Under the pieces are notes generated by a model. It was not told the origin of the DNA. It was given only the letters and a program-made list of their open reading frames with translations, and made no database searches. The translations under genes were made by a program, and so were the position numbers. A stretch of DNA of 20,828 nt from an uncultured cyanobacterium (GTDB taxonomy: Bacteria > Cyanobacteriota > Cyanobacteriia > Cyanobacteriales > Microcystaceae), in assembly GCA_963807635.1 (NCBI GenBank), contig CAWEDJ010000047.1:1-20828 (forward strand). The letters are read 5' to 3'. Below are positions 5,179 to 14,791 of the stretch, one piece after another. Positions within the stretch are counted from its first letter, which is position 1. Every line of letters begins with the position of its first letter.

Positions 5179-6119
5179 TTAGTTAAATAGATCAGAAAAT
5201 TCTGAAGTTAAATGCCGCTCCATCAAATTTTTAACCGCTTCTTGGGGAGTAGTTTTACCCTTTAATAAATAATAAACTTGATCCGCAATCGGCACAGAAA
5301 TTTCTTTAATTTGTGCAATTTTAACCAAAACTTCCGTTGTATTCACCCCTTCAGGACAGCCTTCACTTTCTGCTAAAATTTTCTCTAAACTCATTCCTTT
5401 TCCTAACTTATAACCCACCTGATAATTGCGAGATAACGGACTACTACAGGTTGCCAACAAATCCCCCAATCCCGATAGACCAAAAAACGTTTCAGGTTGC
5501 GCCCCCAAAGCCAAACCCACTCGAATCATTTCTGGTAATGCCCTCGTTAATAAAGCCGATTTCGCATTAGTTCCCAGGGCTAAACCGTCACACACCCCCG
5601 CCGCATCGCCACCACATTTTTGAGAGTACCGCCCAACTCCGTCCCCAAAGGATCACGATTCAAATAAACCCGAAAACTAGGGGAAGAAAAAATAGTTTGC
5701 ACCCGATCGGCCGCCAAGGTATGTTTGCTCGCCACCGCCGTTGCCGCAGGAAGTCCCATCGTAATTTCTTTGGATAAATTCGGCCCCGATAAAACCACTA
5801 AGGGAAAATAGGGAAAAGCCTTTTTCCACAGTTGGGAAGGGGTTTGCAGAGTGACAGGATCTAAGCCTTTTGTTGCTGTCACTAAAATCATTTTTTCGGA
5901 TAAATTTAAGGGGTGAAGTTGATTAATTACGGCTTGAACCCCCGCCATAGAAACAGCAGATACAATCACATCCGTACCTTGGAGAATCTTTTCTAAAGAG
6001 TCTGAATGATTTCGCGACCATAACCGAACCTCATAATCATTCCGTCTTGCCAGTGCCGCTAACGCCGTTCCCCACCGTCCAGCCCCGATAATGGTGACAA
6101 TTTTTGATTGATCTTCCAT
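5179..6119 (-). CDS. gpsA: NAD(P)H-dependent glycerol-3-phosphate dehydrogenase; apparent 1-nt deletion at ~5604
   Basis: IIGAGRWG, ATKGL, LSGPNL, ELGGTLKNV, GLSGLGDL, SRN and EGV motifs split over two ORFs. Restoring GC-ATCGC (5603-5609) to GCGATCGC gives KNVVAIAAGVCDGL in one frame. Confidence 0.95.
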
Positions 6120-7794: not shown

Positions 7795-7800
7795 TTTTTT

Positions 7801-8199
7801 ATGATGAGTGATTCTGACAATACTCTGGCGATCGCAAACTTAGCCTTTGAAGCCTGGAAAATGGGATTAGCCACAGGTAACTGGGAAGCCTTTTTAAACC
7901 TGTTGACCGAGGATTTTACTTTCTCTTTTCCTGTTGGTAAATATCAAGGAATTCATCAAGGTAAAGAAAGCGCAAAAGAATTTTTTGAGTATGTTTCTAA
8001 AATCTATTCGGAAGGTTTAGAAGTTGATTTAAAAAGAACGCTTCAGACGGATCAAACCGTTATTTTCGAGATCGAATCTGCTGGCCAAATGTTAGGACAA
8101 GCCTATCGTAATCAGGCGTCTGTTTTTTTTGAAGTCAGGGGTGAAAAAATCTGTAATTATCGGGAATATCTCGCGGTTTTTTATCGCATAAATCCATAA
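7801..8199 (+). CDS. NTF2/SnoaL-like domain protein
   Basis: 132 aa with the pattern LLTEDFTFSFP...YRNQASVFFEVRGEKICNYREY. Confidence 0.85.
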   Translation: MMSDSDNTLAIANLAFEAWKMGLATGNWEAFLNLLTEDFTFSFPVGKYQGIHQGKESAKEFFEYVSKIYSEGLEVDLKRTLQTDQTVIFEIESAGQMLGQAYRNQASVFFEVRGEKICNYREYLAVFYRINP

Positions 8200-8288
8200 T
8201 TTTGCACGTGATCGCATCCCAACCCCGATAGATTATCCTAAAATAAGAAAATCTTCCCCTCAATCAAACACCAAAGGAATGATACATC

Positions 8289-8606
8289 ATGGCAACGATG
8301 ATCGAAACTGACCTCAAGGAAATCTTATCTAAAATAGACAATCGCTTAGAACACATAGAAAAAGACTTGACGGATTTTAAAGCTGACATGGCGAAAGAGC
8401 TAACGGACTTTAAAACGGATATCAGCAAAGACATGACTGTTCTGAAAGTCGATATGGCAACGGTCAAAGCTGACCTAACCACCGTTAAAGATGATATCAA
8501 AGACCTTAAAGGTTCTCAACGCTCTCAGATATGGGCGTTAATTATCACCGTCATCGGAGCGACTATTACCGCCGTTGTTAAATTTGGTTTCTTCCCTAAT
8601 CCCTAA
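8289..8606 (+). CDS. Small coiled-coil protein with C-terminal membrane anchor, paralogue 1 (105 aa)
   Basis: AAAGGA RBS; MATMIETDLKE start; hendecad/heptad repeats; hydrophobic IWALIITVIGATITAVV followed by KFGFFPNP. Confidence 0.9.
   Translation: MATMIETDLKEILSKIDNRLEHIEKDLTDFKADMAKELTDFKTDISKDMTVLKVDMATVKADLTTVKDDIKDLKGSQRSQIWALIITVIGATITAVVKFGFFPNP
8361..8459 (+). repeat. Three degenerate 33-bp tandem repeats (11-residue units) inside paralogue 1
   Basis: KDLTDFKADMA / KELTDFKTDIS / KDMTVLKVDMA at 8361, 8394 and 8427. Confidence 0.75.
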
Positions 8607-8640
8607 TCCAAACTAATTACAACCAGAGGAAAAATAATCA

Positions 8641-8931
8641 ATGCATATCGTATTTCGGACTGAGAAAGAAGGTATCCAATGTCTCAATATTAGTAATTGG
8701 CTCATAGACAATAAAGGTTATAAGGGTAAAGGTTCTATAGCGGAGTTATGTATTATCATTGATATCCCTGAACAATGTATCAACTTCAATGGGGATGCTA
8801 AGTTTTGTACTCAAATTGAATATCACGAGAAGAAATGGTTTGTTGTCACCTTAGAGAATAATACTATCCATATTCCTGACTTTGAGATACTAGAAATGGA
8901 ACCTGATATCAGGAAGTATCTAGAAATCTAG
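8641..8931 (+). CDS. Hypothetical protein (96 aa), array cargo 1
   Basis: GAGGA RBS upstream; intact AT-rich ORF; no family recognised. Confidence 0.75.
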   Translation: MHIVFRTEKEGIQCLNISNWLIDNKGYKGKGSIAELCIIIDIPEQCINFNGDAKFCTQIEYHEKKWFVVTLENNTIHIPDFEILEMEPDIRKYLEI

Positions 8932-8950
8932 AGAATCTATGGGGGGTAAG

Positions 8951-9049
8951 ATGCGATCGCGAAAGTCAAGAGTGCGAAATTTTATTATCACAGTCATTGG
9001 GGCGACGATCACCGCCGTCGTAAAATTTGGTTTCTTCTCTAACCCTTAA
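8951..9049 (+). other. Anchor-only copy of the paralogue 3' end, either a gene remnant or a 32-aa small ORF (MRSRKSRVRNFIITVIGATITAVVKFGFFSNP; alternative ATG at 8939)
   Basis: 8984-9049 matches 8541-8606 at 56/66 nt, with 9 of the 10 differences synonymous. In-frame ATGs lie at 8939 and 8951. Confidence 0.7.
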
Positions 9050-9116
9050 AACTGCGATCGCAGTCTAAATCCTATAAATTAACCTAAAAATACGAAGACT
9101 AAAGGAGTAATAAGTC

Positions 9117-9356
9117 ATGACAACTACAATTGAAACTGACCTCAAAGAAGTATTAGGAGAAATTAAATCTCAGCTAAACGAAATCCAACGGGATGTAACC
9201 ACTTTTAAAGTCGATATGGCAACAGTCAAGGCTGACCTCAGCACCGTTAAAGCAGATATCAAAGAACTTAAAATTTCCCAAAGCTCTCAGATTTGGGTTT
9301 TAATTGCGGCTATTGTCGGAGCCATTATTAAATTTGGTTTTTTCCCCAATCCCTAA
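9117..9356 (+). CDS. Small coiled-coil protein with C-terminal membrane anchor, paralogue 2 (79 aa)
   Basis: AAAGGAG RBS; MTTTIETDLKE...SQIWVLIAAIVGAIIKFGFFPNP. Confidence 0.9.
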   Translation: MTTTIETDLKEVLGEIKSQLNEIQRDVTTFKVDMATVKADLSTVKADIKELKISQSSQIWVLIAAIVGAIIKFGFFPNP

Positions 9357-9491
9357 AACCGCGATCGCTAATTAAATTCTAAGTTTTGAGTTTTAATCAA
9401 GAATGGTAAAAAATTAGATTATTCTACTGGTGTGGCAATTTTAAAATTGTTATGGCATAATTTTAGATAATGATTTGGCGAGAAATTAATT

Positions 9492-10442
9492 ATGACGACA
9501 ACCCGAACCTATAAATTAGAAATACATATTGATAGTCAACAAATTACAAAAGAATCTTTAGAGAAAAAAGCTAATCATGTTTTACAAAAATATATCGAAA
9601 AAAACTCAATTAGCCTAGAAATTAATACTCCAAATTCCAGTTTTCATCAATTAATTATTAATGGTGATATTGAATCGGTTGATCAATGTCACAATAAAAT
9701 TCAACAGAAAATTATTAACGAAGAAAATTTAATGTTTTATCACTATATTGATGAAGCTGGTGATGAAATTAGATATAAAGCTTATCCTATTTTGGCTTAT
9801 ATTGAGCAACGTCTTCGTGTTTTTGTTAATGAATCTCTAGTTGAGATTTTAGGTTTTGCTTGGTGGGAAAAATATGCGCCTCAAGATATGGCTAAAACAG
9901 TGAATCCACTTCATTCAAAATACAAGGATGATTATATTGCTCCCTCCGTTTTGGAATGCACATTTTTTGATCATTTAATTGAGCTTGTTACTGCTGAGGT
10001 TTCTGAATTTCCGTCTAATAAACCTATTACTAGTGATGAATTCTCTAGTATGTTAGGAAGTTGTCAAACAATTGACGAATTCAAGTCTGTGTGGAATGAA
10101 AAAACAAGAATTATTTCTTTTTGGGATATATTCTCCAGGTATTTTGAAGACAAGCAGACGTGGGATAATTTACAAAGAGATCTAAAGGGTTTTGTTGTTG
10201 ATATAAGAAATAATGTGATGCACCATCGTCCCATTGGTTTCTTTGTAATTAAAAAATTAGACGAAATAAAAGAAGAACTAATTAAAGTATTTGATTCTGC
10301 TAAACCTGAACTCACAGAAGAAGAAAGAATTGAAGCCAAGCAAGAGATTCAAGAAATAGTGTATCATGGGTTTCTTACGGGCTATGCTAAAAAAGCAACC
10401 GATTGGTTAACAGATCAAGAAAAAAAGTTTCAAGAGTTTTAA
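9492..10442 (+). CDS. Swt1-like HEPN domain protein (putative RNase), array cargo 2
   Basis: YPILAYIEQRLRVFV...WW...LECTFFDHLIEL...FSRYF pattern and the R-x4-H motif RNNVMH. Very AT-rich, no HIP1. Confidence 0.7.
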   Translation: MTTTRTYKLEIHIDSQQITKESLEKKANHVLQKYIEKNSISLEINTPNSSFHQLIINGDIESVDQCHNKIQQKIINEENLMFYHYIDEAGDEIRYKAYPILAYIEQRLRVFVNESLVEILGFAWWEKYAPQDMAKTVNPLHSKYKDDYIAPSVLECTFFDHLIELVTAEVSEFPSNKPITSDEFSSMLGSCQTIDEFKSVWNEKTRIISFWDIFSRYFEDKQTWDNLQRDLKGFVVDIRNNVMHHRPIGFFVIKKLDEIKEELIKVFDSAKPELTEEERIEAKQEIQEIVYHGFLTGYAKKATDWLTDQEKKFQEF

Positions 10443-10709
10443 TGATATAATTTAACGATATAAATCAACTTGATTAGTTATCAATCGAAAATTAGTAAAA
10501 ATATAATCTACAGAAAGCTCTTTTTTAAACAACAATAATCTTAATTGCTAAACTTATTCCTTAAAGAATTTATTGAAGCATATAATAAATTTCACAATAT
10601 CAACATCTATATTATTATTCAGTGACAAAATTCGTAAAAAATTCGCGATCGCATCCTAAATCCCTATAAATTAACCTAAAAACAGAAAGACCAAAGGAAT
10701 AATTAAGTC

Positions 10710-11003
10710 ATGGCAACTACGATTGAAACTGACCTCAAAGAAGTATTAGGAGATATCCAAAAAGAACTCAGGGAAATTCGAGGCGACTTAAACGATCTCA
10801 AAGTTTCCCAAGCTCAAATTAAAGGAGAATTAGCAGCTTTTCAGGCTGAAATTAAAGGAGATCTAAACACGCTTAAGGTGGAAGTCTCTCTGATCAAAGA
10901 AGATGTCAAAGACTTAAAAGGAAGCCAACGATCGCAGATTTGGGTTTTAATTGTGGCTATTGTCGGAGCCATTATTAAATTTGGTTTCTTCCCCAATCCC
11001 TAA
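10710..11003 (+). CDS. Small coiled-coil protein with C-terminal membrane anchor, paralogue 3 (97 aa)
   Basis: AAAGGA RBS; MATTIETDLKE...GSQRSQIWVLIVAIVGAIIKFGFFPNP. Confidence 0.9.
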   Translation: MATTIETDLKEVLGDIQKELREIRGDLNDLKVSQAQIKGELAAFQAEIKGDLNTLKVEVSLIKEDVKDLKGSQRSQIWVLIVAIVGAIIKFGFFPNP

Positions 11004-11020
11004 AACCGCGATCGCACTTG

Positions 11021-12404
11021 CTATTTTATGTCGGCATTCGGTAAACGAGTTCCAATCGGTTTCGCAGGAATCATCGGTTTAGTCAGGTGAGAACTACTCT
11101 TTTTTAACACCGATACCGCTTGGAGATATTGGGGATCAAGTTCCGTCCCCACAAGAGAAGGATCATTGCGGAGTTGTAATTGTTGATCAATAGATAAATC
11201 TAGATAGACATCAGGATTAATGCCCTTGTGATTGATATCCGTCCCGCTAGGGGGATAATAACGCGCGATCGTTACCGCTAATCCTGAACCATCAGAAAGA
11301 GAATGAACGGATTGAACAGTTCCTTTACCGTAGGTGGTTGTCCCTACAATCGTTGCTCGTCCATTTTCCTTTAAGGCTCCTGTTAAAATTTCACTAGCAC
11401 TAGCAGAACCGTTATCGACGAGAATTACGAGGGGTAAATTGGTGATATCTGTTCCATTTGCTGAAAAATGGCGATCACCGCCCCTGCGGTCAATGGTACT
11501 CACAATTTCCCCTTTTTTGAGCCACATCCGTGCAATATCAACACTGGCAAACAATAGGCCCCCAGGATTGCCCCGTAAATCGAGAACATAACCCGAAATT
11601 TTCTTTTTGTTTAGATCTTCTATGGCCACTTTCATTTGCTCGGCGGCATGGGAACTAAATTCATCCAAACGGATATAACCGACCCGAAGATCATCATTTT
11701 CTTTGAGGTCATAGGTTACAGAATCTAACTCAATTTGTACCCGTTTCAAGGTGACATCAAAGATTCCCTTATTGGGACGAGACAACTGGAGGCTCACCTC
11801 CGTTCCGATGGTTCCTTGAATCTCTTGACTGGCCTGCTCCAGACTCATTAGGGCCGTGGGTTTGCCATTAATTCTGACAATGCGATCGCCGATCTGGATA
11901 CCCGCCTTCATAGCAGGAGAATTTTTAATCGGTTCTACGACATACAGATCACTGGTGCGCTTATCCAACGTCATCCGCAGACCAATACCCGACACTTCCC
12001 CAGAGGTTTGGTTCGTCAAATTCTGAAAATCATCGGGAGGCAAAAAACGAGTATAGGGATCGCCCAAGGTCTTGAGAGCTTTCACCACTTCCTTGTAAGC
12101 TTGTTGCGGACTACTGTAATTTTTCTCTAACAACTCCTGTCGCTTGGCTAGCCAATCTACATGATTAAAGCCCTTATCGACAAATTCATTATTAATTAAC
12201 TGCCAAACCTCATCGACAACTTTTTTGGGACTATCTTCTAGGCTATTATCAGAAGGTTTTGTTCGTTCAGCCTTGGGTGTTTGAGCAGGAAGGGATTGGG
12301 AACTAAAGGCAGGGGCGGCAAGCGTTTCCAGCACTGAGAGAGATTAGGGCGACTTGGGCAAATAACCTAGAAAGTGATCGGGGGAAACGGGGGGATGGTG
12401 TCAT
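11021..12404 (-). CDS. ctpB: Carboxyl-terminal processing protease (S41A, PDZ); apparent 2-nt loss in the (GA)n run at ~12336-12343
   Basis: DPYTRF, PDZ domain, LDLRGNPGG, SASASE, TYGKG, and CtpB-type YIRLDEFSSH and IDRRGGDRHFSANG. ATG 12404 gives the signal-peptide-like MTPSPRFPRSLSRLFAQVALISL, out of frame with the body. Confidence 0.9.
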
Positions 12405-13908: not shown

Positions 13909-14791
13909 ATGTCTATTCACCAATCTGGTCAAATTTTAGACGGCAAGGCCCTCGCACAAAAAATCCAGCAAGCTTTAAAAACAGAAATTCAAACCCTCGA
14001 ACCGCAAATAGGGCGATCGCCTGGTCTTAGCGGTTTTGATGGTAGGGGATAATCCTGCCAGTGCGGTTTATGTGCGTAACAAAGAAAAAGCCTGTGAAAA
14101 AATTGGAATGCGCTCCTTCGGCAAACATTTTCCTGCCCTAACCTCTCAGGAAGAATTAACTGCCGTTATTCAGGAGTTAAACGCCGATCCCAACGTTGAC
14201 GGTATTTTAGTTCAATTGCCTTTGCCTAAACATCTGGATTCTGTTGCCTTATTACATACCATTGCCCCCGAAAAAGATGCCGATGGATTGCATCCCGTCA
14301 ATTTAGGTCATTTAGTCAGAGGAGAAACGGGTTTACGCAGTTGCACTCCTGCGGGTGTGATGGCCTTACTAGCAGAATATAATATTGACGTTGCAGGAAA
14401 AAACGCGATCGTCATTGGGCGCAGTATTTTGGTCGGTAAACCTTTGGCTTTAATGTTATTGGAAAAAAATGCCACTGTCACCATCGCTCATTCCCGCACC
14501 CAAAATTTAGCAGAACTCACCCGTCAAGCAGATATTGTGGTCGGCGCAGTGGGTCAACCTGAAATGATTACCGCCGAGATGGTCAAACCTGGCGCGATAG
14601 TAATTGATGTGGGTATTAATCGGGTGATAGATGGGTCAGGAAAGGCTCGTTTAGTAGGAGATGTGGATTTTGCTGGGGTTGCGCCGATTTCTAGCTATAT
14701 TACCCCTGTTCCTGGTGGCATTGGCCCAATGACGATCGCGATCCTATTGCAAAATACGGTCTTAAGTTATAAGTCCCATTTACCTGCTTAA
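13909..14791 (+). CDS. folD: Bifunctional methylenetetrahydrofolate dehydrogenase/cyclohydrolase; apparent 1-nt insertion at ~14024-14027
   Basis: [12 protein letters not shown]-terminus from ATG 13909, then [42 protein letters not shown] and [11 protein letters not shown]. Confidence 0.96.

Follow-up and report, generated by a model that had tools for sequence, protein, structure and literature searches.

Homology-facilitated illegitimate recombination, found in naturally transformable bacteria, combines one long homologous anchor with a short GC-rich joint, and integrons and the dif modules of Acinetobacter consist of tandem modules with variable accessory or defence cargo and a short recurring boundary site. 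Here we describe a locus that resembles both, an array of small genes for membrane-anchored coiled-coil proteins (P1 to P3) that alternate with unrelated cargo genes and are bounded by the 8-bp palindrome HIP1. It lies in a 20,828-nucleotide (nt) stretch of DNA (the window; positions 1 to 20,828 of contig CAWEDJ010000047.1, assembly GCA_963807635.1) from an uncultured, Snowella-like lake cyanobacterium of the Microcystaceae. A family gene together with its leader makes up a tile of 300–420 nt which, judging from the pattern of the copies, is copied and exchanged as a unit ending at HIP1, and we consider RecA-type exchange between paralogous tiles, with HIP1 serving as the short second joint for new DNA, the probable basis of these arrays.

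By analogy, the arrays would work like homology-facilitated illegitimate recombination combined with repeat-mediated exchange. They would share with the former the long anchor, the short joint and the duplicated gene ends that it leaves, such as the remnant at 8981–9049, but the anchor here is a dispersed multi-copy gene with a putative promoter of its own and the joint is one recurring palindrome. The remnant and the cargo edges would fit a pattern of long homology on one side and microhomology on the other. With integrons and Acinetobacter dif modules the arrays share the tandem modules, the variable number and order of cassettes and the cargo bounded by a short recurring site, but they have no IntI, attC hairpin or identified 28-bp XerC/D site, each tile carries its own leader and joints also fall inside genes; they are not a member of the integron family. 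HIP1-linked recombination, as in smtB excision and HIP1-stimulated transformation, likewise has ends at HIP1, and competence genes are present here, but the available parts of the reports describe single laboratory events and no natural arrays of HIP1-bounded gene units (PMC13756078, PMC4390886, 10.1101/2024.09.10.611283). Our literature search, whose coverage excluded subscription papers and bioRxiv supplements, found no published description of HIP1-bounded arrays of this family.

Re-reading of the sequence bore out the gene order, coordinates, strand and HIP1 positions of the initial annotation of this DNA, a reading of the letters that had proposed an integron-like array of landing pads for cargo. 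All genes are on the + strand, exact HIP1 copies lie at 8953, 9054, 9361, 10645 and 11008, and the array is flanked on the left by a SnoaL-like gene (Pfam E 2e-12) and on the right by what reads, from its translation, as a C-terminal protease gene. The features, with lengths in amino acids (aa) and cargo open reading frames as ORFs, are:

8208–8288, + strand: leader of P1, with the HIP1 variant GTGATCGC at 8208, a conserved promoter-like block and a putative ribosome site; left boundary of the variable region
8289–8606, + strand: P1, a coiled-coil protein of 105 aa from the XhlA-like family, with a single hydrophobic segment at the C terminus
8641–8931, + strand: 96-aa orphan cargo ORF, 34% GC; left junction without HIP1
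8934–8960, − strand: first 27 nt of a family leader, inverted, taking in the HIP1 at 8953
8981–9049, + strand: remnant 3′ end (anchor) of a P1-type gene, 84% identical to the end of P1
9054–9116, + strand: HIP1 and leader of P2, identical to the P3 leader at 56 of 65 columns
9117–9356, + strand: P2, 79-aa family member; Pfam XhlA E 4e-7 (below cut-off), PHROG 1193 E 4e-6
9361–9368, no strand: HIP1, left edge of the HEPN segment, in the same place in the independent contig L153
9492–10442, + strand: 316-aa HEPN cargo, in which a ferredoxin-like domain at the N terminus precedes an HEPN domain of Swt1-like type, 31% GC
10645–10709, + strand: HIP1 and leader of P3; right edge of the HEPN segment
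10710–11003, + strand: P3, 97-aa family member
11008–11015, no strand: HIP1, right boundary of the array, shared with the related genome G004

HIP1 or its variant marks five of the seven junctions, and at the start of the P1 leader G004 and contigs of metagenome runs X2, X3 and X5 carry the canonical HIP1 in place of the variant. The remnant is a direct repeat of 8538–8606, and the pair brackets the 96-aa cargo. The inverted half-leader, absent from the initial annotation, forms an 81% inverted repeat with 8207–8237 and points back (8960 to 8934) into the 96-aa ORF; its match to the hidden Markov model of the leader is weak (E 0.13). The last 54 nt of P3 are 96% identical to P2 and 98% identical to the single family gene of G004. 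Rfam gave no match at E ≤ 1 within 7800–11400.

The position of HIP1 at the ends of family genes is far beyond chance. The genome contains 4738 HIP1 sites in 4.03 Mb, one per 850 nt (one per 686 nt in intergenic DNA), and an exact HIP1 follows the stop codon within 10 nt in 7 of the 20 full-length family members here and in 10 of 27 in the G004 sample, compared with 84 of all 3901 genes, counts that rest on a simple ORF caller and on paralogues that are not independent. The ends of close paralogues have a HIP1-like site within 22 nt in 12 of 14 cases, and pairwise identity drops to 0.26–0.30 just outside HIP1 on both sides. With reciprocal pairs counted twice, homology to the best partner stops no more than 10 nt from a HIP1-like site in 7 of 10 comparisons at the 3′ side and 5 of 12 at the 5′ side (null about 11%). 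Since paralogue identity is lost outside HIP1, the copied unit comprises the leader and the gene and has its end at HIP1, chiefly in this genus, and the shared unit reads HIP1-leader-gene-stop-HIP1. Every family gene appears to have its own conserved promoter-like leader. The leader profile, made from 12 members, picks out these members, two orphan copies and, as a weak hit, the inverted half-leader; the leader is not a promoter common to accessory genes in general.

Comparison between strains showed that the number of units and the cargo vary at this locus and at two others, and that the variable boundaries sit at HIP1 or within the gene repeat; because of this, the variable array foreseen by the initial annotation withstood the comparison. 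Besides contig L153 and the contigs of runs X1, X2, X3 and X5, the locus could be scored in G004; the flanking genes lie apart in G001, G002 and G005, and G003 lacks the left flank. G004 has one family gene between the same two core genes, with flanks 91–95% identical. The leader of this gene starts from the left HIP1, which both genomes have, and at the 3′ end the gene matches P3. Likeness to the window fades directly past the left HIP1 and returns in the final portion of P3. L153 reads P1-type end, HIP1, a P2/P1 mosaic gene, HIP1, HEPN gene (85%), HIP1 and a G004-type gene; its P1-type end is intact and stands where the window has the anchor remnant, its mosaic gene joins a P2-type 5′ part (112 of 123 nt) to a P1-type 3′ part (98% over 120 nt), and its HEPN gene sits between the same two HIP1 sites as in the window. 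The best-anchored deletion joint comes from a 4.9-kb contig of run X1 that lacks the HEPN cargo. It joins 9129–9248 (2 differences) to 10896–12000, with the front half of P2 running directly into the end of P3 and then into 1.1 kb of the core gene downstream, and skips 1647 nt, exactly the spacing of the P2–P3 repeat, so that the joint falls within the 120-nt gene repeat and off HIP1. The duplications are not assembly artefacts, since the independent contig L153 repeats the order gene-HIP1-HEPN-HIP1-gene and in run X3 there are contigs for every one of the 30 bins, those of the two cargoes among them; the assembly is real and the locus polymorphic. Around the start of the remnant, an X3 contig covers 8751–8979, where the aligned pieces shown stop.

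Two further arrays behave in the same way. Upstream of a cobW-like gene, tile order and cargo differ among three genomes, with edges on HIP1: the genome of the window (G000) carries two tiles with two cargoes of a single gene each, G004 has four tiles and an ATPase-HNH pair that is a complete Septu system (PtuA and PtuB, E 2e-156 and 8e-75), and G003 has four tiles adjoining a reverse transcriptase-like gene. The G004 array also contains five copies of a 67-nt HIP1-bounded spacer, and the Septu genes (L022:2495-4500) lie between copies of this spacer, inside the family array. At the murD locus the number of tiles and the cargo, which includes a DpnII/MboI-like nuclease and a HicB-like gene, vary among five genomes. 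Across the arrays the cargo is heterogeneous and in either orientation, and the neighbours include HEPN and toxin-antitoxin genes.

If tiles exchange by homology, the homology itself is in ample supply, as there are 20 or more similar tiles per genome and others in neighbouring strains. A crossover between two tiles, presumably of the RecA type, would delete or restore the DNA between them and generate mosaic genes. Foreign DNA would enter by natural transformation with one side anchored on a tile or a core gene, and its other side would be joined at the HIP1 palindrome or at other microhomology. No dedicated recombinase would be needed for this, so the tiles would be passive landing pads and one route among many for accessory-gene turnover. 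The genome has the competence genes ComEC and DprA above cut-off and two C5 methylases. The accessible portions of published work report that HIP1 raises transformation and link it to one precise excision (10.1101/2024.09.10.611283; PMC13756078; PMC4390886), which agrees with such capture; in one of these three sources HIP1 is also said not to introduce indels.

Several observations weigh against this mechanism. All joints were read from assembled contigs and no event was observed directly, and the shorter contig joints, which hint at extra tiles past the HIP1 at 11008 and at an allele lacking the 96-aa cargo, could stem from paralogues of other loci. Two of the seven window junctions lie off HIP1, that between P1 and the 96-aa ORF and the start of the remnant, whose family match begins at about 8981, some 20 nt to the right of the HIP1 at 8953; the initial statement that HIP1 marks the junctions thus holds for the other five. 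Outside the genus HIP1 stands right after the stop in only 3 of 24 family members. The comparison of G000 with G004, over 2.14 Mb of the roughly 4.6 Mb of the latter, gave 163 collinear indels (≥150 nt), and just 10 of these involve a family gene even though 26 of the 125 fetched G004 pieces had been picked for the family; with 153 of them away from family genes, these genes are not required for cargo turnover. In a strict empty-site test away from the family, HIP1 was present at 3 of 42 sites versus 1.25 expected (P = 0.13), superseding a first clean-indel test (8 of 37 versus 1.66 expected) that had included family-selected loci and long overlaps. Finally, as HIP1 is conserved by selection according to the part of PMC13756078 available, alignments may simply extend to it.

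Genome-wide, an enrichment of HIP1 at indel ends is suggestive, with HIP1 at most 8 nt away from 33 of 306 non-family breakpoints, against 2.3% of intergenic positions drawn at random, a null taken from one genome only. Of the three empty sites with HIP1, one (1 of 42) is an exact single-HIP1 site, that of a 5.4-kb G004 insert (L205:12880-18292) which lies between two HIP1 sites where G000 has one (an exact duplication); the insert holds a gene for a 1400-aa protein as well as two small ORFs, of which one is coiled-coil-like. Family loci lie near a synteny break in 21 of 28 cases, as against 557 of 1027 other genes (162 of 255 among small genes), and 21 of 29 have no collinear match versus 381 of 1066, about 3 of these 21 being orthologues with length changes; the comparison of family loci at breaks with intact ones was not significant (p = 0.48).

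The proteins themselves match coiled-coil-type profiles and are weakly XhlA-like, and P1 to P3 each have a single hydrophobic 19-mer (mean 2.1–2.3) at the C terminus and none elsewhere. They resemble XhlA (PF10779) and CCDC90/DUF1640 in being a short coiled coil with one C-terminal membrane segment, but with XhlA they score 30.6 bits at best (21.6 and 16.4 for the other two) against a gathering cut-off of 34.7, match a CCDC90-like profile only at E 0.04 and, unlike either, give 15–36 matches per genome in the genus. A precomputed XhlA hit exists for many of their close homologues, which carry the label Snowella sp., and a homologue from Synechocystis bears the NCBI name 'hemolysin XhlA family protein'. 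The consensus at the start of the stalk in CCDC90/DUF1640, a beta-layer of the form aliphatic-A-T-K-polar-D/E in the available part of PMC4786415, is not matched, although by eye P1 and P2 have the similar MATVKAD. A family profile of 22 sequences has 26 matches in this genome, 15–36 in five other genomes of the genus, and 1–43 in each of 27 of 40 relatives. Two broken copies in this genome, C29:107-304 and C80:13429-13626, are near-identical with the same flanks on different contigs, possibly a redundant assembly.

The neighbourhoods of the family are leads to a defence context, short of proof. Two Synechocystis homologues follow the CRISPR2 genes cas1-cas2 on plasmid pSYSA, and from their position we take them to be Slr7073 and Ssl7074. 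Slr7073 co-fractionates with CRISPR RNA (10.1101/2020.07.02.184192), and an Ssl7074-like protein (47% identical) is one of two expressed from the silent prophage Psy1 (PMC4060947), as far as the accessible parts of these sources report. A third Synechocystis homologue (L238:2995-3387), with a leader resembling that of Snowella, is in a polysaccharide gene cluster on plasmid pSYSM, where it would fit a mere passenger equally well; the part of PMC8205485 available gives no phenotype for it. No homologue was found in 50,697 annotated phages and one locus in viral contigs, where a family gene with HIP1 on both sides lies tail-to-tail with an endolysin gene and near a tail assembly chaperone (L169:2931-4229). 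The small proteins have no significant match to defence profiles. Most likely they are inner-membrane-anchored coiled-coil oligomers with an accessory role; that this role is anti-phage seems rather less likely than not.

A less probable reading is that the arrays are an integron-like, site-specific system after all, in which some recombinase or nuclease of the host would recognise HIP1 together with the leader, and HIP1-to-HIP1 circles would be excised and reinserted at other HIP1 sites. The tiles and the 67-nt spacer are indeed HIP1-to-HIP1 units, the spacer with five repeats in one array, the L205 insert is flanked by an exact duplication of HIP1, HIP1 sites can hold a 21-nt repeat, with two near-identical family leaders differing by one unit (filled versus empty), and evidence for site-specific recombination at HIP1 is noted in the available part of PMC4390886. 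However, the window ORFs include no integron integrase, as the initial annotation had stated, and in the genome, which is 94% complete, none exceeds the cut-off (TIGR02249, best 48 versus 265 bits); six tyrosine-recombinase matches all lie on other contigs. Eleven junction and spacer segments fold no better than shuffled sequences (z −1.9 to +0.5), with stems made mainly by HIP1 pairing with HIP1 and nothing like an attC fold, single-HIP1 empty sites are rare and the anchored deletion falls inside the gene repeat, which makes site-specific capture distinctly unlikely and leaves the integron analogy unsupported as a mechanism. HIP1 could instead be a bystander, having flanked an ancestral copy by chance and then been co-duplicated and selected, with all variation due to ordinary recombination of paralogues in tolerant intergenic DNA. 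Its density in intergenic DNA, the weaker link in other genera, the many family members in this genome without a flanking HIP1 and the non-significant strict indel test speak for this, but co-duplication alone does not predict that unrelated cargoes begin or end at HIP1 (HEPN at both ends, Septu, a methyltransferase-like ORF), the excess of non-family breakpoints beside HIP1 also speaks against it, and we place this explanation on the unlikely side.

The arrays might also be kept because the small proteins and the cargo act jointly against phage, the defence hotspot suspected at the outset. The complete Septu system, the DpnII/MboI-like nuclease and the HEPN and toxin-antitoxin genes among the neighbours, together with the homologues beside cas1-cas2, in the silent prophage and next to the endolysin gene, speak for this. 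Yet in a survey of the first 1.38 Mb of G004 (PADLOC, E ≤ 1e-15), hits fell in 1 of 8 family-adjacent inserts versus 10 of 64 others, two of these ten being a TnpB-like and a homing-endonuclease-like gene, a comparison of low power; with cargo so mixed in kind and orientation and small proteins that match no defence profile, a selected hotspot seems unlikely and the suspicion gained no backing. Unlikely, too, in our estimate is an integrase-free cassette system in which the HIP1-bounded XhlA-like genes are at once anti-phage membrane proteins and dispersed homology anchors, and host HIP1-directed cutting joins incoming defence genes at HIP1. Were it true, HIP1 would be a natural, phylum-wide cassette joint, and the 21-nt repeat would owe its placement to the same cutting activity. 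The reading that we prefer remains exchange between paralogous tiles, HIP1 being the second joint.

As for the cargo, the 316-aa protein has an R-x4-H motif (R239, H244) that is present in at least 90% of 16 aligned sequences, and 19 of its 34 homologues hit HEPN_Swt1 (PF18731) at E ≤ 0.01, one of them above cut-off, while the window protein itself reaches only E 0.002. In its model (pLDDT 85) the HEPN region is helical; fold searches were filled by the N-terminal domain, Foldseek giving no match at E ≤ 0.001 and VIA-align matching only that domain, and a single-sequence model of the HEPN part alone had a pLDDT of 47. The PADLOC candidate PDC-M34B matches it weakly (E 8e-7), and an RNase or defence activity is predicted from sequence features. 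One of the 40 relatives has a homologue, in a HIP1-free stretch without family genes, so the movement of the HEPN gene does not depend on the tiles. For the 96-aa ORF, profile searches gave no family hit, the 40 relatives no homologue and the Atlas no hit from 0.9; one 98% homologue is known. The absence of HIP1 from both cargo ORFs, which had been read as evidence, was discarded: many genes of similar length in this genome lack HIP1 (486 of 666 at 250–350 nt, 155 of 433 at 850–1050 nt), joint absence is expected about 26% of the time, and the part of PMC3025956 available treats lack of HIP1 as a weak mark of foreign genes.

HIP1 sites of G000 also show regular spacings. Pairs of HIP1 or HIP1-like sites peak sharply at a spacing of 21 nt, with 31 pairs, many of which have a spacer in common, against 0–3 pairs at 12–20 nt and 2 at 22 nt; examples are C60:32577, C67:24637, C36:61101 (three in tandem) and C75:73438-73466. 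This 21-nt HIP1-associated unit, found in the genome and in some family leaders, may be akin to the SDR5 repeat of Nostocaceae as described in the available parts of PMC5861425, PMC4390886 and PMC13756078. It differs in that the host is outside the Nostocaceae, where SDR5 was reported as not found (PMC5861425, in part), and none lies within the array of the window. Exact HIP1 pairs 26–35 nt apart are in excess as well: there are 101, of which 81 are intergenic, and their spacers are unrelated. Pair numbers rise again near 57–69 nt. Elsewhere in the window, single-base indels relative to G004 at 5605, 7309 and 12323 split or shorten three core genes (glycerol-3-phosphate dehydrogenase-like, fructose-bisphosphatase-like and C-terminal protease-like), and core ORFs near 14050 also look split; these are probably small assembly errors.

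For thirty years it has been an open question what HIP1 does, and the evidence for its part in recombination has so far consisted of a few laboratory events. The arrays described here are natural alleles with exact joints and as such a natural test of its role. Because these alleles exist and the same family occurs in Synechocystis PCC 6803, the dependence of DNA capture on tiles and HIP1 is directly testable. They also bring to light a large uncharacterised family whose members have as neighbours CRISPR genes, a silent prophage repressor and, in one case, an endolysin gene, and which is therefore a candidate accessory membrane protein.

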